NCBI GenBank assembly: GCA_965203465.1
Contig: CBDBCR010000003.1
Coordinates: forward strand, 320,001 to 384,000
Direction of reading: 5' to 3'
Length of the DNA: 64,000 nucleotides
Source of the DNA: Nitrosopumilaceae archaeon
GTDB lineage: Archaea; Thermoproteota; Nitrososphaeria; Nitrososphaerales; Nitrosopumilaceae
A program made the translations under genes and the position numbers. The notes beneath the pieces are model-generated. The model was not told where the DNA came from and ran no database searches. It was given only the letters and a program-made list of their open reading frames with translations. Each line of letters begins with the position of its first letter. Within the stretch, counting starts at the first letter, position 1. Shown in pieces: positions 10,280 to 37,627 of the stretch.

Positions 10280-11512
10280 CTATCCGGGTCTGTGCGCGCG
10301 GGCGCTGCCGTATGAGGCCGGCAGGCACGAGCGCGCCACCGCCTCTATCGACTTTTCGTAGATCCCGTCGTAGTCGGCGTCGTCGCGGTGGTTGGCGGAC
10401 AGGCCCACCGACGCGAAAAAGACGTGCAGCCCGAACCGCTCGGCGATCTCGTCGTGCTGCGCGCGCGGGCGCGCCTTTTGGAATTTTTCCAGAAACTCGC
10501 AGTTGCGGTTGACCAGCACCTCGGACTTGCTGGCCCGGGCCACGTTTGTCGCGCCCCACCCCATCTCGGCCCAGTTCTCCCGCGTCACCCACCTGAACGA
10601 CTGGAGCCGGACGCCGGACCTCTTTTTCCTCTCCTCCGGCTCTACGAATATGGCGTGTATGACGCACGAGAGCGGCCCGTCGCCGGGCCGGGCGAGGGTG
10701 ACGACGACGTCGCCGGCGTCCTCGGACGGCCGCCCCGTACCGCGCACCTTCACCTTGACGCGCCCGCCGAACGGCCCGTGGGGCGAGCCGTCCAGGGCCG
10801 GCGGAAACTTTGCTTCGAGCGAGCCTGCGTCGCGCTCCCGCGTCGTGTAGTCGTCGGGCGCGTCGGTCTCGAGCGTCACGTACGCGGCCGAGCCGTCCGC
10901 GGGGACGGGCCTGTGCGCCGAGACCGCGCCGTTTCTGAACCGCAGGTACGTCGGCACGTAGCTCGTAGGCCGAGTCTTTCTGCCCTTGCCGTCCGGATCG
11001 CCGCCGTCTCCCTCCCACGGCTTGCCGCTCTCTGCAGACGTGCTGCCCGGCGAGAGCATCTCCGAGATCGTCTTGTTCCTGCTGACCGCGTCCCGTATGG
11101 CCCGGTTCATGGACGAATCCTTTACGGATATCCGCTCGTCGAGCTTCCTGTACTCGGACTCTAGCGCCCGGACCTGCTCGTCCTCGCCCACGTCCTCCAG
11201 TATCCTCTCCTCGAGCCTCTTGGAGTCGGCCGACTGGCGCATGCGGTCGCGCGAGGCGAGGAACATCTTGGCCTTGCGCGGAGGCAGGTCGGTCAGGTCT
11301 ACGTGGACCATGGCGTACTCGGCCAGGGAGGAGAGGCCCGACTCGGAGTCGAGCCTCGACTGCCTGAACGAGGCGTGCGTCTGCCCGTTCTGCGTGAGCA
11401 GTATGGCCGCCGACTTTGGCCTCAGCTCCCTCGCGACGTTCTTTTTGTCGGGGTGGAGGCTGGCGTGCCTGAGCACGGCCACGTCTATCCGGTTGGTGCC
11501 GAAACCGCGCAG
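10280..11512 (-). pseudogene. 3' half of an interrupted GHKL/HSP90-like ATPase gene (5' half at 36631-37627)
   Basis: Frame continues upstream of the listed ORF as LRGFGTNRIDVAVLRH and joins in frame to ...SFSIRSKLR through the CGCGCAG repeat. Confidence 0.8.
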
Positions 11513-11527
11513 CGCAGACCCGCTTTA

Positions 11528-12835
11528 GTGCCTTATCAGGAACATAATCCAGACGGGACCGTGGAGATAGACGTGGACTCCATGGAGGGGACTGCCTACT
11601 CCGATCTGATGGAGTCGCTCGGCAGCGACGCCACAAAGTACGTGTACCGCGGCAACCTGGCGTCCTTCATGGCGGCCGTGCCCGACGGCGTCTTTGTAAA
11701 ATACGCCGGATCCCCTCCAAAGTCGCGCGGCATAGAGGACGTGTGCGAGGCGTTCGTGGGGCTGGCGCGGTCCAACCCCGACGCCGCAAAGGCGGCCGTT
11801 CGCAGCTACGTAAAGGGGCTGAAGGGGCTGGTCGAAAGGGGCAAGATGAGCCCCAACACGGTTCCCAACAAGATAAAGCCCGTAAAGGCGCTGCTGGCCG
11901 CGTCCGAGATAGACGTCTCGTGGAGGGTGATCAACAAGATGATGCCGCCGCCCGTCAAGAGCCGCGACCGCGCCTACACCCGCGAGGAGCTGCAGGCTAT
12001 GCTGGCCGGCTCGTCTAGTTTGACGGACAAGGTCATAGTCTTGCTGTTTTCGTCGGGCGGCTTCCGCATCGGCGCGTGGGACTACTTTTGCTGGGAGGAC
12101 ATGGTGCCGGTGGGCGATCCGCCCGAGGGGGCCGCGCTGCGGGTGTACCGCGGGTACCCCGAAGAATACTGGACGTTCGTGACGCCCGAGGCCCACGGGG
12201 CCATGGGCCTGTACCGCAAAGAGTGGAAGTACAGGTTCGGAGACGAGCCGCGCGGGGGCGATCCGCTGCTCGCGTCCGTGAGGTACGACAGGCCCGTGCG
12301 GATCAACGCGCGCGGCGTGAAGGCGAGGGTGACGAAGATAGTCGCGCGCGCCGGCCTCCGCCCGCCGGGGGAGGGGCGCAGGATGCACGCGGTGAAGCTG
12401 GATCACGGTTTCCGCAAGTACTTCAACACCATGCTGAGGCGCGCCAAGGTGGACTACCTGGACAAGGAGGACATGATGGGCCACAAGGTGGGCCTCGAAT
12501 CCCACTACGAGCGGTACAACGAGGAGGATTTCGAGCGGTTCCCCGAGTACAAAAAGGCCATACCGTTCCTGACGGTCTCGGACGAGGAGCGGCTCAGGGT
12601 CGAGGCGGCGGCAAAGCAGGCCAAGATAGACGAGCTGACGGCCCTGCGCAGAAAAGAGGCCGAAGGCAGGGAAAAGATACGCTCCCTCAAAAAGCAAGCC
12701 GTCGGCGAGCGCGAGCTGCGCGGCAGGGTGTTCGAGATGATCGAGGAGTTCATGAGCAGGACCCCGGGCGGCAGGCCGTGCGCGAGGTGCGGCGCGGCGC
12801 ACGAGGGCGAGTGCTCCGGCGGCGTCCCGGGCTGA
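11528..12835 (+). CDS. Tyrosine recombinase/integrase with C-terminal coiled coil and Cys/His knuckle
   Basis: GFRIGA (R), HGFRKYF (HxxR), MMGH and HY catalytic set; GTG 11528 is the first in-frame start inside the element. Confidence 0.93.
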   Translation: MPYQEHNPDGTVEIDVDSMEGTAYSDLMESLGSDATKYVYRGNLASFMAAVPDGVFVKYAGSPPKSRGIEDVCEAFVGLARSNPDAAKAAVRSYVKGLKGLVERGKMSPNTVPNKIKPVKALLAASEIDVSWRVINKMMPPPVKSRDRAYTREELQAMLAGSSSLTDKVIVLLFSSGGFRIGAWDYFCWEDMVPVGDPPEGAALRVYRGYPEEYWTFVTPEAHGAMGLYRKEWKYRFGDEPRGGDPLLASVRYDRPVRINARGVKARVTKIVARAGLRPPGEGRRMHAVKLDHGFRKYFNTMLRRAKVDYLDKEDMMGHKVGLESHYERYNEEDFERFPEYKKAIPFLTVSDEERLRVEAAAKQAKIDELTALRRKEAEGREKIRSLKKQAVGERELRGRVFEMIEEFMSRTPGGRPCARCGAAHEGECSGGVPG

Positions 12836-13071
12836 TGCGGGCGCGCTGAAATCGCGGCCTTTTACGCGCGCCGCGCATGCGCCGCATGGCAGACTGCCCT
12901 TCCTGCACGGAGCCGTTCGCAGACCATTCGAACAGGCGGCTCGTGGCGTGCGCGCGGCGCCTCCTGAAAGAGAACCCGATAGATGCCGCGGATTCGTAGG
13001 CCCGGCATGTCGGACTGGCTGCTTGGCCCGCCGAGAATCGCCGGAGACAATGTTAATATCGCACGTTCGGT

Positions 13072-13575
13072 TTGTCGCGCGCGTTGCTGGCCAGAATCAG
13101 ACTTGCCGTTAATACGCGCAGGCTCAAAAAAGGCCTCGAGCGGCTGGACAACATAGGCGATGCCGTTTGCTGGCGTTTGAAGTTTATACATTACCCCGAC
13201 GGAGCCGAATTCAAAATCGAAGCGTGGGAAGCAGAGTTGATCGTGTTGCAGGCGTACTGTAGGGAATTCGGAATGGGCTTGCCTGAAGTCCAAGTTATGC
13301 TCTATCATTTGCATACTGCGTTATTGGTAAAACCGGAACGCAAAAAGGACATGGTGGATCTGCTGGTAAAGCACGGGTATGCCGTCCGTTGCTTCAAACG
13401 CGCAACACAGATAGACATACGCGATCATGACACCGTCAATTACGAGTTTACGTACACTTCCGAAGGCGATCTGGTAGCTCCGCTCATAATACCTGACTTC
13501 ATATCTGCCGTAAAAGAGGCAGTAGAAGAAATAGAACATTATAGAAACATGCTGAAGATTGTTTCCAATTCGTAG
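13072..13575 (+). CDS. Hypothetical protein, AT-richer than flanks
   Basis: 167-aa ORF with natural composition; no family recognised. Confidence 0.65.
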   Translation: MSRALLARIRLAVNTRRLKKGLERLDNIGDAVCWRLKFIHYPDGAEFKIEAWEAELIVLQAYCREFGMGLPEVQVMLYHLHTALLVKPERKKDMVDLLVKHGYAVRCFKRATQIDIRDHDTVNYEFTYTSEGDLVAPLIIPDFISAVKEAVEEIEHYRNMLKIVSNS

Positions 13576-13890
13576 GCAACGGGCATTTGATCCAGAGGCG
13601 CACGGGAGCGCCCCGCATCGCAGGCCGGACTCCGTGCCAATCCGCGGTTCGGATCCACAAACCGGCCCAGGGTTGCATGTCTGTGCGAAGCGGACCGGCA
13701 GGCTGCAACGCGAGCCAGAGGCGCGACCCGGCGTTCTGAAAAACGGGCGTCAATCCCGGCCCCTAGCCCTGCGCCTGTATCGCGGGCTGTCCAGCATGGC
13801 CCGGGCCAGCTCCTCGCGGAACGGCTCTGGCCTGCGCAGCTCGTCCACGGGCCTTCAGATTCTGCGGCATAAAAGACGGTCCGGGGCGCG

Positions 13891-14340
13891 CCCCGCAGCC
13901 TGGATGCCGGCGTCCCGGGCAAAGGGCACGTCGCAAGCAAGCAGGCCCCTTGAATGCGCCCTGCCCATCTCCGGCCGCCGCGCACGGCCCCCCTTCGGGC
14001 GGCGCCGGACCCCCAGACGGACTGTAGGGGAGCATATACCCCGCAGCCGGGACGCTAGGATCCCGACTGTTGGGCACATCGCCCGCGGATCTAGGGCGCC
14101 TTTTACGCGCCCGGTCGCCCCCGCCGGTCTCGGCCGTGTTGTACGGCCCACTTCAGACGGTCCCAGACACCATCTACCGGCTGTAGGAGGACATGTACCC
14201 CATAGCCGGGACGTTTTTGTCCCCGTTATGTGGTACATCGCCCGCGGATCGGGGGCCCCTTTTAACCGGCCGGCCTCCCCGCCCGGCGCCGCCACCGGCC
14301 GCCCGGGCGGGCGGCATGCCCGGATCCCCTTTTATGCGCC
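13891..14340 (+). repeat. Imperfect ~100-bp direct repeats upstream of the actin-like gene
   Basis: CTGTAGG..AGCCGGGACG..ACATCGCCCGCGGATC..CCTTTTA at ~14022-14105 and ~14181-14265; degenerate copy ~13891-13960. Confidence 0.7.
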
Positions 14341-14355
14341 CTGCCCACCGCGCGC

Positions 14356-15186
14356 ATGCTCAAAATGGGCCTGGATCTGGGCACCGGCTTCGTAAAGTGC
14401 GTCTCGGATCGCGGCGCCGTCCGGTTCCCGTCGGTCTGCGTGAGGCGCGTGCACGGGGCGTGGTCCGAAAAGGACGCCGAGGCCGTCGGCGCCGGCGCGG
14501 CCGAGATGGCCGGCGCCTCGGGCTCCTCGGTCGTGCGGCCCATATCGAGGGGCCGGCCCGAGCCGCGGTACGCAAAGCAGGCCGAGGCCCTAGTGCGCGA
14601 GGCGGTGAGGCTGTCGTGCGCCAAGGACGCCAAGAGCCAAGAGCCGGAAAAGATCAGCATGGTGGTGGGCCTGCCCTACCACGCCTTCGCCGACCGAGAG
14701 GCTCTCGTGCGGCTGGTCAAGCGGACCGCCGACGTCGAAAAGTGCCGGGTGGTGGCCCAGGCGTGCGGCACGCTGGTCTGCCTCGGAAAGCCGAGCGGCA
14801 TATCCGTCTCGGTGGGGCAGGGCACCACCGAGATAGTGGTCGTCGAAGAGTACGAGGTCATAGACGGGGACAGCTCCCGGTGGGCCTCGGACTTTGTGAC
14901 CCGCAAGATAGGCAAGCTGGCCCACCTGGACCCGGGGCTGCTGGAGCGCAACAGGGAACTTTGCAAAAAGTACTCGAGGATACTGGCCGAGAACTTGGAA
15001 TCGGAAGTGCTCGACATGGCAGACGGGTGCGGCAAAAAGCACGACATCGCGCTCTCGGGCGGCGGGCTGCTGCTGCCCGGCATGCTCGACGACCTGTCCG
15101 GCCGCCTCAAAAAGAGGTTCGGCGTTCTGGTTCCCGACGACCCCGTAATGAGCAACGCCCAGGGGCTGTACAGGCTGGTCAGGTAA
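14356..15186 (+). CDS. Actin-like ATPase (ParM/StbA-like)
   Basis: GLDLGTGFVK (phosphate 1), VSVGQGTTE (phosphate 2), LSGGG (adenosine), PVMSNAQG. Confidence 0.85.
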   Translation: MLKMGLDLGTGFVKCVSDRGAVRFPSVCVRRVHGAWSEKDAEAVGAGAAEMAGASGSSVVRPISRGRPEPRYAKQAEALVREAVRLSCAKDAKSQEPEKISMVVGLPYHAFADREALVRLVKRTADVEKCRVVAQACGTLVCLGKPSGISVSVGQGTTEIVVVEEYEVIDGDSSRWASDFVTRKIGKLAHLDPGLLERNRELCKKYSRILAENLESEVLDMADGCGKKHDIALSGGGLLLPGMLDDLSGRLKKRFGVLVPDDPVMSNAQGLYRLVR

Positions 15187-15187
15187 G

Positions 15188-18100
15188 ATGGGTTCCAAGC
15201 GCTGGCAGCTGTCCAACAGGAAGAAACCGGCGGGGCAGCTAGGCTCCGCCGACCGGTTCCTGCCCCCCGCGGGCGAGTTTGCCGCCTGCTCGGTCTTGGT
15301 CCCCATACGGATGGATACGAAGGCGGCCATCCTCGCTGCGGGCGGCTTGGCGAGCCAGAGCGCGCGCAGTTTTGAGATCTGGTGGGACGGGCGCGAAAAG
15401 CGCCTCGACATAGTGCTGGCCGCCGAAAAGCGCGACCTGCCTGCCTACCGGCAGGCGTTCCTCAACATGTACCCCAACGCGGCCTTTTCGGACATGGCCG
15501 CCACCGTCCCGTCCTGGTTCCCGCCGGGCCCCGAGTGCAGGTTCTTCGACGTCGGCACCTACCACGGCCACTACGCCTCGGTGCTCGACAAGGGCAGGGC
15601 CCACCAGCTGATGTCGCAGGTGGCCGCCACCGTCCAGCTCTCCGGCAGGGCGTGGATCCAGTTCGTCTTCAAGCTCCACCCGTTCAACGGGTTCCTGCGC
15701 AGGCACGTGACGCGCCTCAACGCCAAGAACCGCGAGATATCGCGCGGCAAGTACCTGTCCAACACGGAAATATTGATGCACCCCGACAAAAAGCCGCACG
15801 ACCACCCGGAGCTGGGCTACGACTACACGAACAACTACGCCGGCCTCCAAAAGCACGCCACGCTCAAGATGCAGGGGGCCCACGTGCTCATGTCCGCGCG
15901 CGGCGCCGTCTGCGGCGGCGACGACCTGGATCTCCACTTTGACGAGATCGAGGCCATGCCCGTGGAGAACATACACTCGGGCCACGAGCACCTCACGAAG
16001 TTCGGGTACAAGCACTCGGACTTTGCCGACGAGAAAAAGGCGCGCGTGAAAATCGGCAAAGAAAGGGGAACGCGGATGGACCTGTTCGCTTCCCGGCTGC
16101 TGCCGGAGCCGGCCAGGTTCATGGACAAGGCCGTCGGAAGATACTTCGACAAGGGGATATTCGGGTACGGGGAGCGCAGGCCCCTGCCCTTTCTGCTGCT
16201 CAACTTGTCAGAGATCCCGCTGCTGGTTCACCTGCCGGCGCCGGCGACCCCCAACATCGAGACGACCCGCGGCGTCTCGATACCGTCCAAGCCGTCCGAA
16301 AAAGAGGGCGCCAACGTGGGCTTTTTCAGGCAGCCGGCCCCCTCCGGCTTCGACTGGTCCGAGGCGTGGGGGGTATCGGCCAGGTCCAAGGACGTGGGCG
16401 CGGCCGTCGTCTCCGAGGCCGACTTTGCCACCCACCTGTACGCCGTGGGGGCGTCGGGCTCGGGCAAGACCTCGCTGATACGGCTGCTGGCCAAGCATTT
16501 GGAGGCGTGGAACGGTTCGGGCTTCCCCAACGCCTTCGTGTACGTGGATCCGAAAGGGGACGACTCCCACAAGTTCGTAAAGCAGTGCTCGCCCGAGGCG
16601 CTGGCCTCGGGCAGGGTCCATTTCCTGGATCCGCAATCGACCCGGTTCTCGATAAACCCGCTGGAACTGCCCGCCTACGCGCCCGAAGAGAGGGAGGAGA
16701 CCGTCTCGCGGTACGTCGGGTACTTTATGAAAACGATAGAGGAATGGTACCAGCAGTCGGCCAGCTACGTGCAGATGGAGAGGATCTTCCGGGCCCTGCT
16801 GTTCTACCTGTACATGAGGCACGACGCCCCGACCTTTCTGGACATACACGACACGATACTCAAGCTCCAGGACCGCAAGGGAGACGCTTTGCCGGAGATA
16901 ATAGAGACGTTCGGCGAGCCGGACCCCGAGATGGAGCGGGCCTTGGAGAGCATCGCCACGCTAAAGGGTGAGGCGTTCACGCCCCTGCTCAACAGGGTGG
17001 AGCAGTTTGCCACCGACTCGGTGCTCAAGAGGATGTTCTCGGTCAGACGCGGCACCGTCGATTTTGCCGACCTGATAAAGCCGGGCTCGTACACGGTGGT
17101 CAGGATATCGCCCTTGAACATGCCCCAGCACGTACAGCCGCTGGCCATGCAGGCTTTCATACTGAAACTGTGGTTCACCATACAGGAGAGGGCCAACCGG
17201 GTGCCCGACGAAAAAGACCGCACGCAGGTCGTTCTGGCGCTGGACGAGTTCCAGATAGTAAAGGATCTGCAGGTTCTGCAGCTGATGCTCGAGCAGGCCC
17301 GCTCGCTGGGCCTCGGGCTGGTATTGTCACACCAGACCACCGAGCAGATAAGCGACAAGCAGCTGGGCATCATATCGGGCAACGCGGGCACCCAGCTGGT
17401 CGGCAAGGTCAACGGCAAGGACGCCTCGCGCATAGCCCAGATCTGGGATCCACAGTTCCAGACCGAGCTCCAGCAGCAGCTGGCAAGCCAGGAATACTTC
17501 CACTGGACCGTGCGCGAAAAGGCGCCGCCCGGAAAGGAGCAGCCGCCCCCCATACAGTTCTGGCTGGGCTCCCCGCCCGAGCAGATGGTGGGCGGGGCAG
17601 CGTACCAGGAGTTCGTCGCCGACCAGCTGGAGAGGTACGGGCGCGGCGTGGTCGGCAGCGCAGAGTCGGCGGCCAGGGAGGCAAAGACGCGGTGGATGGA
17701 GCAGGTGACCGTCAAACTACCCTCCGGCATGGAGTGGAAGATAATGCTGGCCCTCCGCCAGGGGCAGAGCCTACAGCAGGCGCAGATAGTCGATATTCTG
17801 CGCGTGGCCAACAGGACAGAGGTGCTGCCCGTCCTAAAGGATATGGTCGGGCGCGGCCTGCTGGAGCGGCCCGGCGGCGGCCGGACGGCCCCGTACAGGC
17901 TGACCTCCAAGGCGAAAAACACCTACTTTGATCTGGACTTTGTCGGGGTCGGCACGGCCGGCGACGTCGAATCGCTGTGCCGCAAGGCCGCCGAATCGTA
18001 CATGGCCTGGGACATGTTCGTGGCAGTCGCCAGCCAGAAGATATCCAAGGGCAGGGACAGGACGGATCTCGTGGCCTACAACTACGAGACGGGCGTGCCG

Positions 18101-18289: not shown

Positions 18290-18331
18290 TCGGCCCGTCC
18301 GAGTCTGCCCGACTTTGCCCCCCGGCCGCGC

Positions 18332-18640
18332 TCACTTGATCTCCAGCCTGTCCAGCGGGTCGAAATCCAGCTTGTCGACGGGCTCTGTCCTGCGCTCTTC
18401 GGCCGCGCCCTTCATGGTCTTTTCGATGGCCTTGCGCGCCTGGGACACGTAGTCGTCTACCGCCTTGGCGTCCTTTTTGCTCAGGGTGTCCCGCCGCTTG
18501 ACCACCAGCATCCCAGATACGGCATCCATGGCTATCTCGTCTCCGGCCTCCCACCCCAGGTTCCTGACCATGTGGGTGGGCACGCTCAACATGTACGTCC
18601 TGTCTTTTTTGCGCAGCATCCGGCTCTGCCTCTTGTCCAC
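18332..18640 (-). CDS. AbrB/MazE/SpoVT-family DNA-binding protein
   Basis: YMLSVPTHMVRNLGWEAGDEI...LVVK signature; GTG 18640 preceded by TTAAAT. Confidence 0.8.
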   Translation of the reverse strand: MDKRQSRMLRKKDRTYMLSVPTHMVRNLGWEAGDEIAMDAVSGMLVVKRRDTLSKKDAKAVDDYVSQARKAIEKTMKGAAEERRTEPVDKLDFDPLDRLEIK

Positions 18641-18679
18641 GCCCTCCGTCGGGCGGCCGGATTTAAGGCAGAAAGGCGC

Positions 18680-20188: not shown

Positions 20189-20318
20189 GCGTACGGGACG
20201 AGCCGCGCCGTAATCAACCTTGTGGCCGGTTCCAGCAGCCGCCTGCTTGACCCGCCGTGGCCGGCGCCCGCGTACACTGTACAGGCGGCTTTAAATCGGC
20301 ACGCTTCCACGCGGAGGC

Positions 20319-28178: not shown

Positions 28179-28180
28179 CT

Positions 28181-28759: not shown

Positions 28760-31700
28760 TCTTCCGACTTGTGTATAAGCAACGCCGCTAGTGCCCGCAG
28801 ATCTTTGGGCGAGAACCCGCCACCTTTCATGTCCCGAGCGACTTTGTCGGCTACTCTTTCCATGGTTTTTTTCTGTTGTGCGGGCATGCTTACCACGTCG
28901 CGCTCCGTCCGCCCGTCCCGGTGCACCACGGTGACTTGGAACGAAGGCCTAGCGTACATTCCGGACACGTCTGCAAAGTGCAGTGCGCCCAGTTGCGTGA
29001 ACCTGTCGCGCATGTCGGCCAAATTTTCCTTGAACGCGCGCCGATCCCCGTCCGTCCAGTCCGCGGGCGGAACTTCGGTCAGGCACATGGCCACGTACTT
29101 TATCCACTCGTCGTCTTTGAGCGTGTCGGCGGCCAGCGCGGTCAGAAACGCCCTAGTCCGGCGGTCGGCGGCGTGTTCCAGCAGGGCGGCCGCAGATTTT
29201 GACAGCTTGTCCCTGTCGCCTGCCTCCATCTCGTCTAGCAGCGCGGTCCGCAGATCCTGCAGCATGCGGGTGAACGCCGACTCTAGTACATTGACGGCGC
29301 TGCCCAGCCTGAGCGCGAATTCGTCCAGCCTGGCCTCCGCCCTGGCGCCGCGCACATGGCCAAGCCCTAGCGCCGCCGGCAGCGACTCGAACAGGAGCGT
29401 GTCGGGCTCTGTCGCCCTGCTTATGGCTTCGCGTACCGCGGACGCGTCTTTTCCTACGGTGTCAGTTTCCTTGACGCACTTGGGCAACGAATTGACCGTC
29501 CTGACCAGCCTGGACACGACGTCTAGTATATCGAGCCTGCCGGATCCGGCCTTGCCCGTCTGTAGCTCGCGCGCGATGCGCTCTAGCGCGGGCCTGTTGG
29601 CCTTGGCGCTTCCCACGTGCTTTACCTCAAAGAGGTCTGGGTTTTTGACCATGCGCTCTAGCGACTCTGCGGTGACCGTCGGGCAGTACGTGCCGTGCTC
29701 GTAGAGGGCGATGGAGTCGCGGTTGGCCAGGATCAGCGCAGTGAGCAGCACCGGCATGATGCCGGCCCTTGCGCCGAACGGCGGCGAGGCGGCCTCCGAG
29801 TAGATCTCGGAGACACGCACCCGTCCCCCGCGTTCCTTGATCATCAAATGCATGCGGTTCCACATTTTCGCTACGAGGCCGCGCGGGGGGTAAAGTCCGA
29901 CCTTTGCGTTCTTGCCGCGGTGTATGCCGGTTCTGCCAAGCAGGGCCTCGTATATGGCACGCTCTGGCCCCCATCCCTCTATTCCCAACCTGGGCGCCCC
30001 GCTGTTTTTGACCATGGCCCCCAAGAGCTTGTTCACGGCCGATGTTCCCTGCGGCGAGACGACGTTGCGGTTTACTATAACGTTGAACACGAGCGGCGCG
30101 TCGGGGTACGCGTCGTCGCACGCTTTGGAGGCAGCCTCGCCAGCGCTGTTCTGCTTGGCAGGCTTGCCGGGTTTTCCCGCGCGGTGCCACTTGGCGCCCT
30201 TGCCGAACGCCGCATCAAACCCGCGCACCATGGCCGACTCTGCGGCCTCTAGCCTCTCGTTGAGCTCCTTGCGCGCCACCCAGTCGACGGTGATCTCCGG
30301 CTTGCTCTCCAACACATCTCGTATGGACGCTGCCTCGATCGCGGCCGCGCGCAATGGCCCCAGGTCGGCTGCCTCTACCGCAAGCACCGGGCGCCTAGGC
30401 GGCGATTCGCTGCGCTCCGGCTTGCCCGTGACGTACGTAATGGCTCCGTCACGCCCTTCAGGCTCTGCCCACTCGCCTTGGCCCCGATCCGCAAAGCGCC
30501 TCTCGAACACCCGGACAGTCCCCGTCTTGCGTGAATGCCGGGCAGCTACGACCGGATCCAGCGGCATGAACTTGTTGAGCATGTCTGCCAGCGGCGCGTC
30601 AGACCAGCGCGTACGCGCAGTCTCCAGGGCCGCCCTTATGTCGGTGTCCGATCCGTGCCAGATCCTGTACTCGTCGGCGTGCCGGCGGTACGTCACGATC
30701 GACTTTTTCTCAAGCACCTGCAAAGCCGCGTCGGACGAGCCGCCCGTCGCGTACCGGACCATGCTGCGAGACGCGCGGAGCCTGCCAGACTTGCCCAGCA
30801 GGTTCAACACCCCGATCGCCTTTAGCGCGCGCGATTCCTCTTCGGACAGACCGCGCGCGTCGCGTATTATGGTGGACACCTCCATCAGCCTAGAGACGTT
30901 GGACGAGGAGGCGTGTGCGAGCGCGGAGCCTGCCACAAAGTAGTCGTACAGTACGTCTAGGCCCACCGCTGGCAGCTCGCCCAGTCCGTCCCAGTCTTTT
31001 TCGTCTATGAACCTGGCAACCGTGTGGGACCCGCCGCCAGCGACAAAGGACAGCAGCGTCCGCTCGTTCTGCCCGTACCGGGAGCACATTTCGGGCAGCA
31101 CCTCTAGGACGAGCGGGTGGAGCGGGTAGCACGATGACAGCAGGCCCTCGCTTATGTCTTGGCCCAATCCTGCATTTCGTGCTTTCTCTGCTTGATCCTT
31201 GGCCCATGCGTCGATCGCTTCCCGGTACTCTTTTTTGACGTGATCTGTTTCGGCGGGCTTTAGCGCGCCGGCCACTAGAAGGCGCGCCTGTTCCGGGGAG
31301 TTTGAGAACGGCAGATCGTCAAAGCGGCCCTGTACTTTGGACCATTCTCGCCGTTGCGCCGTCGACACACCGGTGGCGTACTCTTCGAATGCCATGTGTT
31401 GGAGCGTCACGATAAAGAGCGGGATCCTCTCCGATCCTCCAGCCAGCTCCGCCATGGCCTGCAGTAGGAACAGATCGCCTTCCCCGCGCTGCTCGTCGGT
31501 AAAGTATTCTATGTTCTTGCCAAACTCGTCTACGATTACTAGTATAGGCGCCTTGGCACACATGCCTCGTATCACGTTCAGGATGGATGCGGTGTTGGGC
31601 ATCTTGCCCCCGTCCAGCCCGTTCTTCATACTCTTGAGTGCGTCGGCGCCGTCAAAGGCCCACCTGCGCCGGCCGAAATACCGGCGCGCGCCGTCTTCTA

Positions 31701-32178
31701 GCGCACGCACAATTGTGGCCGCGACCGGCTCGCGACTTGCCGTGACGGTGCAACGTAACAGTCCATTTTTGTGCGCGTTCAAATCTTTACGAGTGTTGTG
31801 CACAGAAGACGCCAGTTCGGGCACCGCGTCGCGCAGGATGCCGTGGGCCTTTTTCCATTCAGCGCTGTTGCCGGGCGCGTACAGCGCGTCCAAGAACACG
31901 GCCATAGTTGACTTGCCGGAGCCGTACGGCCCGGTCACCGATATGGCGCGGCCGTGCTTGCCGCCCCGCATCCCCAGATCCAGCCTTGCGATCGCGTCGA
32001 ACGTGCCTGGCCCCGGTATGTATCCACGCAGGGCTTCCGAACCCCGATCGTGTTCAGCGTTGACAGCGGCGTATTTTTTGAGCGACAGAGTCGCCATCCA
32101 AGAGAGATGAACCCTCTCCACCCGGATGTTCTTGGAATCTGCCGTTCTCGATCTAGCGGCCTTTGCCCGTCTAGTCAT
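28756..32178 (-). CDS. sspC: Large P-loop ATPase, SspC-like
   Basis: TGPYGSGKS, IVDEFGK, EWSKVQGRF, CYPLHP, YGQNERTL; ATGA overlap with the DUF4007 gene. Confidence 0.8.
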   Translation of the reverse strand: MTRRAKAARSRTADSKNIRVERVHLSWMATLSLKKYAAVNAEHDRGSEALRGYIPGPGTFDAIARLDLGMRGGKHGRAISVTGPYGSGKSTMAVFLDALYAPGNSAEWKKAHGILRDAVPELASSVHNTRKDLNAHKNGLLRCTVTASREPVAATIVRALEDGARRYFGRRRWAFDGADALKSMKNGLDGGKMPNTASILNVIRGMCAKAPILVIVDEFGKNIEYFTDEQRGEGDLFLLQAMAELAGGSERIPLFIVTLQHMAFEEYATGVSTAQRREWSKVQGRFDDLPFSNSPEQARLLVAGALKPAETDHVKKEYREAIDAWAKDQAEKARNAGLGQDISEGLLSSCYPLHPLVLEVLPEMCSRYGQNERTLLSFVAGGGSHTVARFIDEKDWDGLGELPAVGLDVLYDYFVAGSALAHASSSNVSRLMEVSTIIRDARGLSEEESRALKAIGVLNLLGKSGRLRASRSMVRYATGGSSDAALQVLEKKSIVTYRRHADEYRIWHGSDTDIRAALETARTRWSDAPLADMLNKFMPLDPVVAARHSRKTGTVRVFERRFADRGQGEWAEPEGRDGAITYVTGKPERSESPPRRPVLAVEAADLGPLRAAAIEAASIRDVLESKPEITVDWVARKELNERLEAAESAMVRGFDAAFGKGAKWHRAGKPGKPAKQNSAGEAASKACDDAYPDAPLVFNVIVNRNVVSPQGTSAVNKLLGAMVKNSGAPRLGIEGWGPERAIYEALLGRTGIHRGKNAKVGLYPPRGLVAKMWNRMHLMIKERGGRVRVSEIYSEAASPPFGARAGIMPVLLTALILANRDSIALYEHGTYCPTVTAESLERMVKNPDLFEVKHVGSAKANRPALERIARELQTGKAGSGRLDILDVVSRLVRTVNSLPKCVKETDTVGKDASAVREAISRATEPDTLLFESLPAALGLGHVRGARAEARLDEFALRLGSAVNVLESAFTRMLQDLRTALLDEMEAGDRDKLSKSAAALLEHAADRRTRAFLTALAADTLKDDEWIKYVAMCLTEVPPADWTDGDRRAFKENLADMRDRFTQLGALHFADVSGMYARPSFQVTVVHRDGRTERDVVSMPAQQKKTMERVADKVARDMKGGGFSPKDLRALAALLIHKSEE

Positions 32179-33119
32179 GCAAGAGCCTCCTCGGTTCGGC
32201 GCGTGCCCGGCGCTCTGCGGCCGTACGCTGCGTACAGCACTTGGAACGCGGCGTCTCGCGCGCTGCCTTTGAACGTCATGTTGGGCATGCCGTTGGCGTG
32301 GCTTACCGAGACGGCGCCGCACGCACCGGCCGCCTCGGACAACATTTCTGCCATGTCCGTCTCGCTCAGCTTGAACGCTGTTCCGGGCCCGCCGTTTTCG
32401 AGGGCAAGTCTGTTGATCGATATGGTGCGCCCCGGGATCTCCGCCCTGTCCACAAAGTCCAGGCACGCGTACGCCACGACTAGGGGCGAGAGGCCGGGTT
32501 TCCTGCCCGAGACGAACCGCACGTCCCCGTCCTTCCGCCTCAGCAATCCGAGCGTCCTGAGCGGGCAGTCTAGATAATCCTCCGTCTGTTCTTTGTCTTT
32601 TTTGGACAGGTACGTATGCAGGAACACGTCGGTGTCGCGTTTTACAGAATGCTTGCTTGGCTTCCACCCGTCGACGGCATACACCGTCGACTCTGCCTCT
32701 TCCAAAAGATCCGCCGCAGAATAGACCCCGGTGCCGGCTCCGTTCATTATGGCCCACCACGTGGGAAGGTAGCACGGCGGCGCCAGCAGCGACCAGTGCA
32801 TCAACCATACAGTCTCTGGCCTGTCAAGATCTGGATCGAGGCCGCCGTGGTCATGGAATATGGCTTTCCCCAGAACCGTGGGCGCTGCCCGGGCCTTTCT
32901 GGCACCGGTTCCGTTCTCCAAAACTTTGGCCGCCAAGGCCCAGAACCTCATGGACCGCACCATGTTCTTGCCCACGCCTAGTACTACAGGCGCGTCGTCG
33001 CGCGAGAACACGTCCCGATCGTCTGAGGCATGATCGTATGCCTGCTTTAGCCAGCCGTACCTTGGGTGGAACGTCTCGTGGCGCCCAAACATCTGACGAG
33101 CAGAGTCTTCTAGGCGCAT
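32175..33119 (-). CDS. sspB: DUF4007 protein, SspB-like
   Basis: FGRHETFHPRYGWLK, LGVGKNMVRSMRFW, WLMHW, PLRTLGLL. Confidence 0.85.
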   Translation of the reverse strand: MRLEDSARQMFGRHETFHPRYGWLKQAYDHASDDRDVFSRDDAPVVLGVGKNMVRSMRFWALAAKVLENGTGARKARAAPTVLGKAIFHDHGGLDPDLDRPETVWLMHWSLLAPPCYLPTWWAIMNGAGTGVYSAADLLEEAESTVYAVDGWKPSKHSVKRDTDVFLHTYLSKKDKEQTEDYLDCPLRTLGLLRRKDGDVRFVSGRKPGLSPLVVAYACLDFVDRAEIPGRTISINRLALENGGPGTAFKLSETDMAEMLSEAAGACGAVSVSHANGMPNMTFKGSARDAAFQVLYAAYGRRAPGTRRTEEALA

Positions 33120-33215
33120 GTATTGGATCCTCCCGCAACTCGATTCGAACACGCGGAGTCTTGTGGCAAAACGGACAGCTTGGCCAGGCTTCCATTTGCC
33201 GCACTTGAGAGCATG

Positions 33216-35147
33216 TTAAGCACCCCGATACCCGTGTTTGCGTAGATGTTGATCGTGGTGGCTGAGCGACCGAGTTTTCAATGCCAAGTCGCAGAGTCTG
33301 TTCTCCCGTTCTTCCAGCACATCTGCGGTCCATTCGCCATATTGGTTTAGATATTGCTCGTTGAGCTTGATGTCGGAGCTGCCGTATCCTCGCGGATCTT
33401 GCAGTTTTTCTGCGAAACGCTTTGCTCCCATGCCGCGGTTCCATTTTCTTGGCAAGAGCGTGAGGTTGCCCAGGCGATTCTTGTACTTGTTTATGTCCTC
33501 GTCCTCGGGGTTTTCGCCAAGGAATGCCGAATCGTCCCACTTTTGGTGGTTTTTGGGCAGTATGTGTTCCAACTCGAACGCGTGTTTTGGATACGGGTGG
33601 GGCTTTTCACGGTTCAGGTATATTTCCATTGACAAGAGGATGTATTTGGCGGCCTTGGGGGTAAGCTTGAACATTTTACCCTTAAAATTTTCTGCGAACT
33701 TGGCTTCGGCAATACGCGGAAGCGGGGTACCGGCTACATCCTCGTTTACCAATATCAGGTATATCATTTCTGACAAGCTGGCGTCGCCCTCTAGTTTTTT
33801 TGTGACCCTATTGGCGATAGATCTGACATCTTCTGCGGTTCCATCGTTGATGAATTTGAACTTGAAGAAAAACGTCAAGAGGCAGTCCGCCAAAGTCTGA
33901 AATTCGTAGCTGCCCAAGCTCCATTTCCGGCCAGCTGCGAGCATGGGAACCCGTATGTATCTGGCGCCGAGAAGCTGCATCAGGTAAAAAATACTCTGGG
34001 TTTTTTCGTACTTTTCGTCCTCTGGCAGATCCTCCGGGTAATCCATCTGCTTGACAATTTTGGCGTCTTCGTTGAGGTGCTCTATGTATCTCTCTGCTTC
34101 TTTCGCATTCCTTACCGCAGACTCGACTATCTCGTACAAGTTTTCTGTAGTTATGGGTTTGTCGTTGTAGCGACCCGACGGATGCCGAGAAGATGTGGAT
34201 TCGTATAGGAACCGGTCGTGATCTTCCAAGCGTTCGTCGAATATCTCGCGCCACCGACGTTCCATTCTCTCATGGGCGCCTTGAGACTTTGTGGTGCTGA
34301 GCAGGTGGGATTTTATCAGGTCTGCATCCATTAGCTTTTGTCCTTGAGAGTTAAAGGTGGCGAATATCTTGTAGGCGCTGTACCTGTTGTAAACTACGAT
34401 GAACGCAAAGTGGTTACGCTTTACCAAGTTTTGGGATATGTGTCTAGACAATTCGTTAGCCGCCTCTGAAAACTCATCGGGTTTCTTGTTGTCGAAAGAT
34501 TTATCCAACTTTGCGAGCATTTTTTCCGCCCGTTCGGACAACACGCGGTAGTTGTTTATGAGTAGCGCGTTAGAATCAAGTATTCTTTTTTTGCTGTTCT
34601 TGTACTTGACTAGCAGATCTCTGCACCGGCCTACGTAATCGTGCGTATCTGTGGACATAATATCCCGAAACAGAACAGAATCGTCGTTTCCCAGTTCGAT
34701 TCGTGGCTCTCCTGGCTTTATGTTCAGTATGTTGTCGATGGTGGCCACCGCGTTATCTAGCGCAGGGCGCGTGCCGGGCAGCTCGTTGCCCTTGAATTTG
34801 TATAGACACGAGCGAATAGCGCACAGTATCAGCGCGATGGTGGCTAGTCGCTGCTGTCCGTCGACCACTTCGAACTTTGGCGAGCCGCTTTCTTGTGGAA
34901 CGACGACCATAGCTCCGAGCAGGTTGGTTGAACTAGGCGAGCCGCTAGGCGCTTCTGCCGTCTTTGCTATATCCTCGAACAGCCGTACGGCGTTATCGAC
35001 GTCCCACGAGTAACTTCTCTGATAAGACGGGATTTTGTATGCGTGGATTTCGTCCAACAGGCTACCGATCGACCTGCGGTGTACCTCATAATCCTCGTAA
35101 GACACGTCAAAAGCACCCGGATAGTTCTTTAAATGTTTTAAGTCCAA
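33216..35147 (-). CDS. DUF262 + DUF1524/HNH protein (SspE/GmrSD-like)
   Basis: IPSYQRSYSW, VVDGQQRLAT, FATFNSQG, LEHILP, RLGNLTLL...N; noticeably lower GC. Confidence 0.88.
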   Translation of the reverse strand: MDLKHLKNYPGAFDVSYEDYEVHRRSIGSLLDEIHAYKIPSYQRSYSWDVDNAVRLFEDIAKTAEAPSGSPSSTNLLGAMVVVPQESGSPKFEVVDGQQRLATIALILCAIRSCLYKFKGNELPGTRPALDNAVATIDNILNIKPGEPRIELGNDDSVLFRDIMSTDTHDYVGRCRDLLVKYKNSKKRILDSNALLINNYRVLSERAEKMLAKLDKSFDNKKPDEFSEAANELSRHISQNLVKRNHFAFIVVYNRYSAYKIFATFNSQGQKLMDADLIKSHLLSTTKSQGAHERMERRWREIFDERLEDHDRFLYESTSSRHPSGRYNDKPITTENLYEIVESAVRNAKEAERYIEHLNEDAKIVKQMDYPEDLPEDEKYEKTQSIFYLMQLLGARYIRVPMLAAGRKWSLGSYEFQTLADCLLTFFFKFKFINDGTAEDVRSIANRVTKKLEGDASLSEMIYLILVNEDVAGTPLPRIAEAKFAENFKGKMFKLTPKAAKYILLSMEIYLNREKPHPYPKHAFELEHILPKNHQKWDDSAFLGENPEDEDINKYKNRLGNLTLLPRKWNRGMGAKRFAEKLQDPRGYGSSDIKLNEQYLNQYGEWTADVLEERENRLCDLALKTRSLSHHDQHLRKHGYRGA

Positions 35148-35258: not shown

Positions 35259-36416
35259 TCATTGCCCTGCCACCTCCACCGTCTTGCCCCGCACAAATCT
35301 GGCCGCGTTCGTCAATTCGGCTACGGCCAGATCTACGTCGCTTTGTTCTGTAGGAACGCCCAGCGACACGCGCACCGACTCGTCGGCCGCGTCCCTGCCG
35401 AGACCCATGGCGGTCAGCACGTGGGACGGCTCCATCGCAGACGACGAGCATGCGCTGACCGACGAGATCTCTATCCTGCGCGCGTTGACAATGACCGCAT
35501 CGGCTATGGCGCCTTCTATCCGGACGTTGGACGTGTTTGGCAGCCTCGGCGCCCCGCCCCCGTTGACAGAGACGCCGCCAAGCTCCGAGACAAGGCGCCT
35601 CTCCATCCCGTCTCGCATGGCCGCGTGCTCGCCGGCCTTGTTCGCCATGACCGGCACCACGTGCTCGCACGCGGCGGCCATGCCGAGTATTCCTGGCACG
35701 TTGAGCGTGCCGCTGCGCATGCCCCTCTCCTGGCCCCCGCCGTGGATCTGGGCCCTTAGCATCTTGCGCGCCTCTTTGTTGGCCACCAGGGCACCGCATC
35801 CCTTGGGGCCGTATATCTTGTGGGCGCTGAACGTGGCTATGTCCACTCCCGCCCTGCCTGCATCGAACGGCACCTTGCCTACAGCCTGGGTGGCGTCGCT
35901 GTGGAGCAGGGCCCCGTGCCTGTGAACCAGCTCGGCTATATCCTCTATGGGCTGCACGACCCCCGTCTCGCTGTTGGCCGCCCCGACCGAAACCAAGTCC
36001 GTCCGGTCGTCCATACGGGCTTCCAGATCGGCCAGGTCCACCAGCCCGTCGGCGCCGACCGGCAGCACGTCAGCCTTGAGCCCGAAATTCCCCATGGCCG
36101 CGCACGGGTTGATCACGGACTTGTGCTCCGTAGAGCAGTAGAGAGCCCGGCGCTCGCGCCCTGGATCGAGCCCGAGCGAGGCAAAGACTACGTTGTTGGC
36201 CTCGGTCGCGCCGGACATGAACACGACGTCGGACTGCCTCATGCCGACCGCGGCGGCCACTCTCTGGCGCGCCCCTTCGACCGCATCCATAGCGTCCTGG
36301 CCGGACTCGTGGACACTGGCAGGGTTGCCGAAGTTTTCGGCCAACGCGGGCATCATCGCCTCTACGACTACACCTGCCGCAGGGGTCGTGGCGTTGTAGT
36401 CTAGGTACACCGGCAT
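35259..36416 (-). CDS. Cysteine desulfurase (IscS/DndA/SspA-like)
   Basis: YLDYNATTP, FGNPAS, GATEANN, FSAHKIYGPKG, RSGT, SACSS. Confidence 0.95.
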   Translation of the reverse strand: MPVYLDYNATTPAAGVVVEAMMPALAENFGNPASVHESGQDAMDAVEGARQRVAAAVGMRQSDVVFMSGATEANNVVFASLGLDPGRERRALYCSTEHKSVINPCAAMGNFGLKADVLPVGADGLVDLADLEARMDDRTDLVSVGAANSETGVVQPIEDIAELVHRHGALLHSDATQAVGKVPFDAGRAGVDIATFSAHKIYGPKGCGALVANKEARKMLRAQIHGGGQERGMRSGTLNVPGILGMAAACEHVVPVMANKAGEHAAMRDGMERRLVSELGGVSVNGGGAPRLPNTSNVRIEGAIADAVIVNARRIEISSVSACSSSAMEPSHVLTAMGLGRDAADESVRVSLGVPTEQSDVDLAVAELTNAARFVRGKTVEVAGQ

Positions 36417-36613
36417 GGTGTGGCCCCCAACCCGCTCTGATTTAAACTTGGCCGGCCGATCGGCCGGAGGCGCGCGATCGCGTCCACGGCGCTGGAAAAC
36501 CCCCGTCCGGGCGCCGCGTTTTGATAAAAAAATTTTTGTCTGTCACTGTATGGCAAGGCCGCCAAAAAGCGCCCCGGCGCGACTTTTGCGCGCGGTTTCA
36601 CGCGCGATCCCGG

Positions 36614-36630
36614 GCAAAAGCTATATAATA
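36614..36630 (+). promoter_or_regulatory. Outward-facing BRE/TATA-like motif at the element right end
   Basis: GCAAAAGC-TATATAA-TA directly before the CGCGCAG core; no plus-strand gene follows in the integrated state. Confidence 0.6.
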
Positions 36631-37627
36631 CGCGCAGTTTGGACCTTATGGAAAAGCTCCGGTACACGTGCGGCCGGAACTCGCGCTCGAGCAGGTTGCG
36701 GCTCCCGTACATGACGTGCGGGTTCTGCGCCGAGCCCGGGTGCCTCGCGTCCTCCACCGTGATCGGCAGGGGCGGCGAATAGAGCACGCTGTTCATGTCC
36801 GACCACAGCTTTTTGGCGATGTGGTTTTTCGGTATGTCGTAGTCGAACATCTTGACCATGCACCCGTCCTCCAGCCGCCCGCCGCCGGGCAGGATCTCCA
36901 GCGGGCCGCCCGGGACGGTGCAGATGCGCCCGTCCGGCCCCACAAAGTACTCGTACCACGTCGTCTTGTCGTCGTCCGAGGCGTTGGGCGTCTCGCGCAC
37001 CAGCGTAAACCCCCACTCGGAGCCGGGCGCCAGTTCCGCGCTGCGCCGCGCCGCGATCAGCTGGTAGCCCCGCTCGCCGCAGAACGGCAGCACGCCGGTT
37101 CCGCCCATGTTGTACTTGCCCTGCACGAACTTTATCCTCTTTTTGTTGCCCTTTTGGAGCGAGAGCAGCGTGGTCTCGAACTTTTCCGGCTCCTGCCCCT
37201 CGCCCCTGTCGGCCACGACTATGTTGGGGCTCGAGGTTTTCGCGCCGTCCGCCATCACGCGCACGTTCTGCGCCAGTTTCAGCATCTTTGGCCCGTCCAG
37301 TTTCGAAATGTCGCCGCCGGGCACGCCCATGTACCTCTCGAGCGCCTCGGCCATGCTAGACGGGGCGCCGCGGCCCGCCGGCCTGTCCCCCGCCATCAGG
37401 CAGTGCTTTATGAGCACGTGGTCGATGGAGTTGACCGGCTTTTCGCACAGGGAATTGACCGGCGAGGACTGCTGGTTTGAGACTATGGCGTAGTTGTTCT
37501 CGGTGCCGCCAAGCGGCTTCCACCCGGCGTCCCTGAAAAAGGGGCCGCCCAGTATCCGGTCCACGTCCCTTTCGCCCTGCGCCCGGGCCAGCGAGAGCAG
37601 CGCGTCGCGCCCGCTCACCTGCGCCAT
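36631..37627 (-). pseudogene. 5' half of the interrupted GHKL/HSP90-like ATPase gene
   Basis: EKPVNSID, ADRGEGQ, QGKYNMGGTG motifs; protein-like sequence ends at SKLR, then runs into element DNA. Confidence 0.8.

Follow-up and report, generated by a model that had tools for sequence, protein, structure and literature searches.

A 25.1-kb integrative element splits an accessory GHKL-type ATPase gene in a sponge-associated ammonia-oxidising archaeon

The 64-kb stretch of DNA analysed here, which we call the window, raises one question: is the segment that parts the two halves of an ATPase gene a mobile element that could leave again and give the gene back? Because the genome encodes an archaeal AmoA, we class the host with the ammonia-oxidising archaea. 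The stretch occurs in metagenome runs from sponges and from marine settings, and the host is a sponge-associated symbiont. We favour the explanation that the segment is an integrative element of 25.1 kb, belonging to a family common in the lineage and inserted at CGCGCAG by site-specific recombination of the tyrosine-recombinase type; we give this explanation a probability of roughly 0.85.

The split gene and its junctions

The two halves of the gene and the ends of the insert are as follows.

37627..36632, minus strand: N-terminal half of the target gene, 332 codons, translation ending in SIRSKLR
11512..10280, minus strand: C-terminal half, from LRGFGTNRIDVAVLRH to the stop, 410 codons with the Leu-Arg of the core counted in
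11499-11505, plus strand: host arm of attL, read as CCGAAAC
11506-11512, plus strand: attL core CGCGCAG, encoding the Leu-Arg common to both gene halves
11513-11560, plus strand: left end of the element, containing AGACCCGC and then TTTAGTGCCTTATCAGGAAC at 11524-11543, a block common to paralogous elements
36622-36630, plus strand: right end of the element, TATATAATA, adjoining the attR core CGCGCAG at 36631-36637

The preliminary description placed CGCGCAG at 11506-11512 and again at 36631-36637, where we find it; the insert so delimited spans 25,125 bp (11513-36637). The direct repeat ends at 7 bp and extends neither way. Since the 7-mer is frequent in the window, with 68 occurrences, counting both strands, where 38.9 +/- 6.3 would be expected, it is weak evidence by itself, and the main evidence is the split gene. 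As it stands, the N-terminal reading frame continues into the element to a stop at 36401, and the C-terminal half is an ORF of 400 aa with a GTG start at 11482, present in public collections. Removal of the 25,125 bp in silico rejoins the halves in frame, as had been claimed, into a single ORF of 740 codons whose only stop is the terminal one; set against the intact public protein P0133 (740 aa), its product has 2 differing residues in 740. A search for full-length collinear homologues, proposed in the preliminary description, finds them in P0133 and P0005 (737 aa), and the two halves match the same proteins. Against P0005, 325 of 329 positions of the N-terminal half (residues 1-329) and 392 of 410 of the C-terminal half (residues 328-737) are identical; there is no gap, and the overlap is Leu-Arg alone, the codons of the repeat. 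Against P0133 the C-terminal half shows 0 differences in 399 positions and the N-terminal half 2 in 329. H269 and H304 are private substitutions of the N-terminal half in the window, and they might represent early decay. The exact join and the collinear intact homologues bear out the proposal of an att site inside a protein-coding gene, and the rebuilt empty site reads, as then written, CCGAAAC-CGCGCA-GTTTGG, an imperfect inverted repeat that may be fortuitous. At the protein level the empty site is known from the sequences of intact alleles.

What does the insertion break? The Bergerat boxes of the target are invariant in 39 homologues (E62, N66 and D69; D140, G142 and G144; G175, G176 and G178), residues that we take to be the N box, DxGxG and GxxGxG of the customary box definitions. 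The structural model (pLDDT 85.2) has its best PDB matches in Hsp90, GRP94, MutL-N and GyrB-N (E about 1e-8 to 1e-7) and aligns with Hsp90, MutL-N and GyrB-N over some 400-490 alignment columns. On the strength of this model the target is a GHKL ATPase with a GHKL and transducer fold. Its HATPase_c_3 match reaches 16.8 bits, below the Pfam cut-off of 25, and neither the PADLOC models nor a profile search of the PDB gave a match to it. The break lies between strands 321-328 and 338-344 of the model. Because the insertion thus cuts the gene at about codon 330 of 740, within the modelled GHKL-transducer fold, the ATPase gene most likely stays off for as long as the element remains inserted. The target counts as accessory: of the 61 related genomes searched, 1 carries it and the other 60 lack it. 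A metagenome scan with P0139 returned 57% as its best match, and the 18.8-kb contig of P0139 itself was missing from the results. As a side observation, in five relatives the genes for TatC and a biotin/lipoate ligase (36-71% identity) are distant or on separate contigs, an arrangement that does not bear on whether the target gene is itself an insert.

In the favoured explanation, the crossover would have fallen within the 7-bp overlap CGCGCAG, at codons 331-332 of the 740-codon gene, between an attP on the element and an attB in the gene whose identical cores would leave one core at each junction. Given one identical core per junction, the reverse reaction would rebuild the gene exactly. Present-day excision, a circular replicating form, loss of target function and activity of the cargo are what we infer beyond this.

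The integrase, the element family and the cargo

Directly inside attL lies the gene expected of such an element.

11561-12835, plus strand: tyrosine recombinase (integrase), 424 aa, reading inward from attL

The start is that of the public gene calls, with an alternative ATG at 11582. The preliminary description invoked a tyrosine recombinase, and Pfam, PHROG, conserved residues and the fold model agree in placing one at this end of the element. Sequence scores are low: E=5e-4 against Pfam Phage_integrase (PF00589; 20.3 bits, cut-off 27.1), E=4e-4 against NCBIfam XerA (NF040815; 19.9 bits, cut-off 220) and E=1e-4 against the PHROG integrase. A search of the PDB with the integrase sequence alone gave no match. 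Its profile aligns with XerA 4a8e at E=0.0096, matching the box-I Arg, HxxR and GH motifs (GGFR/GAGLR, HGFRKY/HQLRHS and MGH/LGH in the integrase and XerA, respectively). Across 11 homologues there is no variation at R169, R285, H308 and Y316, and hardly any at H282; judging from the spacing, Tyr316 is probably the catalytic tyrosine. Likewise, the best PDB folds for the model are XerA, Cre, XerH and lambda Int, with XerA 5hxy on top (E=2.4e-7); there are 45 matches at E<=0.001, all tyrosine recombinases among the matches listed, with TM up to 0.60 by target length. Model confidence is moderate (pLDDT 69.5) and low at residues 268-345, a part that takes in the catalytic HxxR, His and Tyr; residues 341-400 form a long C-terminal helical tail. 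The protein is a divergent, distant member of the tyrosine-recombinase family with intact catalytic residues. It resembles archaeal XerA and pNOB8-type recombinases in its fold, its catalytic residues and a gene that is whole when integrated, and departs from them in its very divergent sequence, its scores under the curated cut-offs and its long tail. Viral contigs yielded no relative of the integrase, and no excisionase was recognised with Pfam and PHROG profiles. In SSV-type elements attP lies inside the integrase gene, which integration splits; here the integrase ORF is uninterrupted in the integrated state, and an SSV-type element is rejected.

Four related elements lie at other places in the same genome. 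Similarity to these paralogues begins at position 11519 or 11524 of the window, which fixes the left boundary independently of the repeat; the 20-mer TTTAGTGCCTTATCAGGAAC occurs once in the window. Copy D adjoins a tRNA-Lys(CTT) gene, and AGACCCGC is the 3' acceptor strand of that gene; at copy B a direct repeat of 12 bp lies 66 codons short of the end of a giant ORF. Copies B and D occupy usual integrase targets, unlike the mid-gene copy. Elsewhere in the genome there is no second copy of the element's right end. The sister copies combine a mobile backbone with variable cargo, and the backbone, comprising the integrase, a ParM-like ATPase, a VirD4-like ATPase and iteron-like repeats, is conserved.

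14356-15186, plus strand: actin-like (ParM/ALP) partition ATPase (Pfam MreB_Mbl 1.9e-9, ALP_N 1.3e-7; PHROG partition protein 1.7e-12)
15188-18289, plus strand: P-loop ATPase of 1033 aa with a VirD4/TraG-like region (Pfam TrwB_AAD_bind 1.2e-5, above cut-off)
18332-18685, minus strand: small AbrB/MazE-like ORF (Pfam MazE_antitoxin 0.0019, below cut-off)
18679-18846: iteron-like repeats of 22-23 nt, from the tandem-repeat search
19177-19476: perfect tandem array, 15 nt x 20, from the same search
19586-19900: perfect tandem array, 51 nt x 6.2, within the ORF 19557-20213

The region 18332-18846 is possibly a replication or partition site. The P-loop ATPase also matches the NCBIfam VirD4-like family at 4.6e-6, far under its cut-off. 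With this one weak VirD4-like region and VirB4 missing among 19 ORFs scanned, a thaumarchaeal integrative and conjugative element is rejected.

The remainder of the element, of lower GC, carries cargo that includes defence-type genes.

20319-21089, plus strand: protein with YwbE (DUF2196) and AlbA_2 domain matches
21086-22051, plus strand: ORF without a match in family searches
22150-23520, plus strand: HNH-domain protein, by domain match
23607-25607, minus strand: second GHKL ATPase, HATPase_c_3, MzaB-like (Pfam 3.5e-22; PADLOC MzaB 1.5e-13)
25373 to about 26985, minus strand: PbeA-like SF2 helicase (PADLOC PbeA 6.9e-23)
26986-27813, minus strand: SspD, PAPS-reductase type (PADLOC 5.1e-110; Pfam PAPS_reduct)
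28756-32067, minus strand: SspC (PADLOC 6.6e-298; ORF open to 32808, match from residue 248)
32175-33152, minus strand: SspB, DUF4007 (PADLOC 1.6e-83; Pfam DUF4007 3.3e-74)
33216-35147, minus strand: GmrSD-type (DUF262+DUF1524) nuclease (Pfam GmrSD_N 1.1e-31, GmrSD_C 7e-20)
35259-36416, minus strand: cysteine desulfurase of the SspA/DndA type (PADLOC SspA 2.9e-123; Pfam Aminotran_5 4e-70)

The SspABCD module is complete, and its gene content predicts DNA-phosphorothioation activity. The rest of the genome offers no match to SspB or SspC, and to SspA and SspD distant ones only (24-40% identity). The GmrSD-type nuclease is a candidate restriction partner of SspABCD; its best PADLOC model is HEC-06 (1.9e-70), and the SspE models match residues 33-122 only. 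The strong SspA, SspB, SspC and SspD matches and the adjoining DUF262-type nuclease recall the SspABCD-SspE system, as presented in the accessible part of PMC8092258; the present module differs in that its nuclease fits HEC-06/GmrSD better than SspE, that it rides on an archaeal integrative element and that it is known as genes only. The GHKL ATPase of the element was considered as a paralogue of the target and rejected, as the two share no significant similarity.

In the parts of the survey by Krupovic et al. (2019, PMC6563490) available to us, cryptic integrated elements share with the present one an ammonia-oxidising archaeal host, an integrase at one end, very short direct repeats, variable cargo including defence genes and a protein-coding target. 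For direct repeats of thaumarchaeal elements the median there is 17 bp and the shortest measures 8 bp; with 7 bp, the core found here falls below every repeat reported in those parts, which counts against the explanation that we favour.

Mobility, relic or switch

A question remains, is the element mobile today? Three target alleles are both occupied and empty in public assemblies with zero amino-acid differences, which argues that mobility is recent. The split C-terminal halves P0129 and P0135 each equal an intact allele (0 of 399 and 0 of 398 differences), and the split N-terminal half P0134 equals P0128 (0 of 329). Together with the C-terminal half in the window, itself without difference from an intact allele, these cases uphold the earlier suggestion of a recent insertion. 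Several assemblies are occupied: the longest contigs recorded for C-terminal halves and for integrases agree in length (9481 and 7059), and so do those recorded for an N-terminal half and an integrase (1,078,775).

An unlikely explanation is that of a fixed, immobile relic, in which one old insertion persists, homologous recombination between strains has spread the two states and no excision occurs today. Between the five known occupied sites the integrases share 98-100% identity, consistent with a single origin, and independent insertions are left unproven. No allele difference comes within 80 nt of the junction, and identical alleles in two states could have arisen by homologous recombination between strains. 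Decay in the family is real, two sister copies having an integrase with an in-frame TGA and two more being fragments. Contigs were mapped to positions 9000-19100 of the window, which cover attL, in four runs, with all 30 bins covered in each; neither an empty-site nor a circle junction appears among the joints and loose ends listed (contigs only, at attL only, with 172 loose ends outside the list). Against a relic, the integrase of the element in the target is full length with its catalytic residues present, and the split halves stand only 0 and 2 amino-acid differences from the intact allele. Moreover, at least four different element right ends adjoin the same core; some 20 nt just inside attR are common to four variant occupied sites, and the read-through tails all start with VLYSFC. 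It is plausible that the element is still excisable.

Could excision be a programme of the host? In Bacillus, skin interrupts sigK and SPbeta interrupts spsM, and in Listeria phi10403S interrupts comK; their excision is regulated and tied to a host programme. The present element likewise is a recombinase element within a coding sequence whose precise excision would rebuild the gene; it differs in its archaeal host, and it is known from the integrated state, excision being predicted. A programmed, reversible switch, by which the ATPase gene would be activated at need through regulated excision, would suit the exactly restored ORF, the identical alleles known in both states and a break that is mid-gene and not 3'-distal. 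We hold it quite improbable: neither regulation nor excision is in evidence, the mobile backbone and variable cargo, as in the sister copies, do not look domesticated, and the target is an accessory gene of such narrow distribution.

Very improbable is an origin of the 7-bp repeat as a target-site duplication, through a transposase or casposase. In its favour are the shortness of the repeat and the frequency of the 7-mer in the window, but the element ends, compared with each other, have no terminal inverted repeats, no transposase or Cas1 occurs among the 19 element ORFs compared with Pfam, grounds on which a transposon or casposon is rejected, and a tyrosine recombinase stands at the element end. 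Sister elements lie beside a tRNA gene or near the 3' end of a gene, like integrase-borne elements, and several host alleles carry an insertion at this same position. A chimeric assembly of element and gene, conceivable for a genome of metagenomic setting, with the stretch in sponge and marine runs and with many strain variants, has next to no probability, as a contig of run X8, from an independent Logan assembly and possibly of the source sample, bridges attL with 0 differences, other public contigs carry split ORFs with the same ends and both junctions are base-exact. In run X4 the junction contig has 30 letters on the host side, one below the bridging rule; its contig depths are 52 at the host flank and 13.5 at the junction, and such depths are not copy numbers.

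The target family and the meaning of the insertion

Unexpectedly, homologues of the target adjoin sspBCD at many of the loci examined: 26 of 80 in genomes and 13 of 80 in metagenomes. One search gave 822 relatives at E<=0.001, and no curated family matches above its cut-off. In the part of the SspFGH paper accessible to us (PMC8092258), 83.9% of sspBCD clusters are without a known restriction partner; that part gives no sequence features of SspG for comparison, and the target family is uncharacterised. Among the matches listed in a literature search, none links sspBCD with an HATPase, a histidine kinase-like ATPase or MORC. The family may be a partner of phosphorothioation systems, and a resident effector of this kind could clash with the SspABCD module and nuclease of the element. 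On such grounds one may imagine an exchange of immunity, the element knocking out a resident phosphorothioate-linked effector, installing its own and returning the gene on excision; we regard this idea as speculative and improbable.

The element, integrative and inserted by its tyrosine recombinase as we favour, is of a known kind, and its gene-breaking target is unusual. Protein-coding genes are the targets of 14 of 68 thaumarchaeal integrated elements, all at 3'-distal positions with the frame kept or rebuilt, in the accessible part of PMC6563490; the insertions so described spare the gene, in contrast to the mid-fold break found here. The locus is a natural case for asking whether archaea use reversible, element-borne switches like those of Bacillus and Listeria, and the question is testable, since the sequences expected at attB and attP follow exactly from the known junctions. 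It also shows that, in a sponge symbiont, a phosphorothioation defence system travels with an archaeal mobile element. Finally, the target family is a concrete candidate for the missing restriction partner of sspBCD, and this may outweigh the insertion itself.

The split target gene and its rejoined reading frame

The 7-mer CGCGCAG lies at both ends of the insert, and the preliminary description had claimed that removing the DNA between the two copies joins the halves of the target, a GHKL-type ATPase gene, in frame. The repeat alone is no proof because CGCGCAG is common in the window (68 occurrences versus 38.9 expected); the surrounding gene is the evidence.

Sites and gene halves, in window coordinates
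11506-11512, attL, left copy of CGCGCAG
36631-36637, attR, right copy of CGCGCAG
11513-36637, the element, 25,125 bp
37627..36632, minus strand, N half of the target, translated as 332 residues with the C-terminal end SIRSKLR
11512..10280, minus strand, C half of the target, its translation beginning LRGFGTNRIDVAVLRH and open to a stop

In-silico removal of the 25,125 bp by coordinates yields, as claimed, a single 740-codon ORF whose one stop is terminal and which differs from P0133, an intact public allele on a 199-kb contig, at 2 of 740 residues. The description had also called for collinear full-length homologues of the joined protein, and these exist. Among 5735 candidates, 822 proteins longer than the N half are related to it at E<=0.001, and the top match, the intact allele P0005 (737 aa, 99% identity), covers both halves: its residues 1-329 align to the N half (325/329 identical) and its residues 328-737 to the C half (392/410 identical), with no overlap other than Leu-Arg, which the repeat encodes. 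P0005 belongs to a 90%-identity cluster of 23 members; among the 15 listed, six are full-length proteins of 736-740 aa, the shorter P0131 (649 aa) lacks the first ~90 residues yet spans the junction, and others are split C halves with the same GTG start as the window's or N halves whose frame continues past this same junction.

What would the cut do to the protein? A model of the intact target (39-sequence alignment, pLDDT 85.2) matches Hsp90, GRP94, MutL-N and GyrB-N across about 400-490 alignment columns, and the 39 sequences show no variation at the GHKL boxes. The junction residues 330-332 fall between strands 321-328 and 338-344 of the matched module; going by the model, neither half should fold to a working enzyme.

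The host genome (2.26 Mb, 4 contigs) carries archaeal AmoA, and the stretch is present in metagenome runs of sponge and marine origin (X1-X13), which belong to 5 studies. Housekeeping genes (TatC, biotin/lipoate ligase, NadA, aspartate dehydrogenase) flank the locus. A search of 61 related genomes found the target gene itself in one, which is the window's own, and the gene is therefore accessory. An IS110-family transposase gene (DEDD_Tnp_IS110 and Transposase_20) lies in a lower-GC stretch of the left flank, at 6999-8135.

Integrase, cargo and sister elements

Element features, in window coordinates
11561-12835, tyrosine recombinase (integrase), 424 aa, at the left end of the element
Downstream of the integrase, a ParM-like ATPase
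Downstream of the integrase, a 1033-aa ATPase, part of it VirD4-like
18679-18846, iteron-like 22-23-nt repeats, core CCTGCAGGCGCCTTTT, adjoining an AbrB/MazE-like ORF
19177-19476, perfect tandem array, 15 nt x 20, unit CCGTGGCTCCATGGC with an internal palindrome
19586-19900, perfect tandem array, 51 nt x 6.2, inside the ORF 19557-20213

The integrase scores poorly against family models (Pfam E=5e-4, NCBIfam XerA E=4e-4, PHROG integrase E=1e-4), with Pfam and NCBIfam below the curated cut-offs. Three further lines are stronger. A profile built from 11 integrase homologues matches archaeal XerA (4a8e) at E=0.0096 with the box-I Arg, HxxR and GH aligned, R169, R285, H308 and Y316 are invariant in the 11 homologues, and the folds that best match the AlphaFold model, itself of moderate quality (pLDDT 69.5, poor over residues 268-345), are XerA, Cre, XerH and lambda Int, with E down to 2.4e-7. 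The tyrosine-recombinase reading suggested earlier is borne out. A family-wide search gives an integrase match at E<=0.001 in 106 of 201 genomes, a count that takes in two unpublished genomes and many distant recombinases. Terminal inverted repeats are absent from the element ends, no transposase or Cas1 was detected among the 19 element ORFs scanned, and the 64-kb window holds no tRNA genes.

The sequence TATATAATA (36622-36630) directly adjoins the attR core, and in the excised circle it would precede the integrase, by ~38 nt if the start is at 11561 and by 59 nt if it is the alternative ATG at 11582, so that integration may part the integrase from a TATA-like box. With the element integrated, the reading frame of the integrase is open upstream through attL to 11303.

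The cargo occupies the right two-fifths of the element, with GC down to 0.50-0.56 in places. It encodes the DNA-phosphorothioation proteins SspA, SspB, SspC and SspD, with PADLOC E values of 5e-110 to 7e-298. A GmrSD-type nuclease, for which HEC-06 is the best model, is encoded too, as are a PbeA-like helicase, an HNH protein and a second GHKL ATPase unrelated to the target; SspB and SspC have no further match elsewhere in the own genome. The iteron-like repeats, to which stretches in the sister elements are related, may be where the excised form begins replication or is partitioned. The perfect copies of the two tandem arrays point to a very recent expansion, or else to an effect of the assembly.

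The same genome holds three further full-length integrase copies (81-82% identity, two with an in-frame TGA), two N-terminal integrase fragments and one distant relative.

Related elements and remnants with the integrase-ParM-ATPase backbone (four), on contigs C1 and C3 of the window's own genome
C1:670704-703168
C3, about 921-931 kb
C3, about 976-988 kb
C3:402946-403430
C3:102401-102783

The backbone common to the copies spans about 9 kb from the left end of the element; the cargo is not common. Similarity to the sister copies begins at 11519 or 11524, 6-11 bases from the proposed element end, and this comparison fixes the left boundary. One sister copy abuts the 3' end of tRNA-Lys(CTT), and AGACCCGC, retained at the left end of the studied element, is the acceptor strand of that tRNA. 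Another, of 32.46 kb with the 12-bp repeat AAACGGGCAGAA, is inserted 66 codons short of the end of a >7,400-codon ORF, which it truncates and provides with a new stop; a paralogue of this giant ORF (C3:403431-406499) has the same kind of end, adjoining an integrase fragment. Both sites are usual targets for such elements: Krupovic et al. 2019 (PMC6563490) assign 68 thaumarchaeal elements to 39 tRNA, 15 intergenic and 14 3'-distal protein-gene sites, with repeats down to 8 bp. Unlike those 3'-distal sites, the cut of the studied copy lies mid-gene. This is a known kind of element, carrying defence cargo and unusual in its gene-breaking target and its very short core.

In X5, a sponge metagenome run, one contig joins 14485-like sequence back to 11522 via 33 other letters, which include the kind of left-end junction seen in the C1:670720 sister element; the joint could stem from a variant of the element, tandem or rearranged, in the population sampled.

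Probable recent mobility and possible present-day excision

Is the element still moving? The preliminary description had called the insertion recent, and the alleles agree: against the intact P0133 the window's C half has 0/399 differences and its N half 2/329. Likewise, two other split C halves have 0/399 and 0/398 differences from intact alleles and one split N half has 0/329, so three distinguishable alleles are seen both occupied and empty. Strain-to-strain recombination could yield the same pattern, as the allele differences all lie away from the junction. Four occupied sites have the first ~20 nt inside attR in common (tails begin VLYSFC) and then diverge, which we count in favour of activity. 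Against it we count that the integrases of the five known occupied sites share 98-100% identity. A contig of metagenome run X8, perhaps the source sample, crosses attL without differences. Recent mobility of the element is very likely, and for present-day excision we put the odds at about even. The insertion is real, precise, recent and the work of a tyrosine-recombinase element; excision is putative.

The target family and phosphorothioation genes

In the neighbourhoods of 80 genome loci encoding target relatives, two families, SspC and SspD, each recur in 25; SspB recurs too, and a DndB-like gene recurs in 9. Searching by tblastn with the window proteins places SspC and SspD in 26 of the 80 and SspB in 25, and finds SspD in 13 of 80 metagenome loci, 31 of which are at least 10 kb long. 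At these ssp-linked loci the genes sspB-sspC-sspD lie within a few kb of the target relatives (e.g. L045:10001-18115, L055:2827-16972 and L059:3437-11431, in the L001-L181 set of loci), in several phyla and in varied gene order and orientation. Some loci also have a GmrSD-HNH gene or additional GHKL ATPases, and at some, two or three GHKL ATPases that differ from one another stand in a row. Homologues with adjoining sspBCD come from cultured Flavobacteriia strains among others (L051, L078). The ssp-linked members stand further from the target (about 27-35% identity), and tblastn finds no ssp genes in the 39 closest genome loci. The closest relative in the genome collection (53% identity), in a Cenarchaeum MAG (L001:3587-18846), neighbours an AAA_13 ATPase and two helicases, one bearing an MrfA Zn-binding domain and the other large; this locus, without ssp genes, looks like a defence island.

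In the protein atlas, clusters of the target family are labelled hypothetical, some with HATPase_c_3 on 14-26% of members, and no PADLOC model matches the family, which is therefore a candidate new partner of phosphorothioation systems. It may be SspG; the SspFGH paper (PMC8092258) puts at 83.9% the sspBCD clusters without SspE or SspFGH. An SspABCD-bearing element has thus entered a gene whose family is frequently found together with sspBCD. The simple clustering of defence genes may account for this, or a conflict between systems may.
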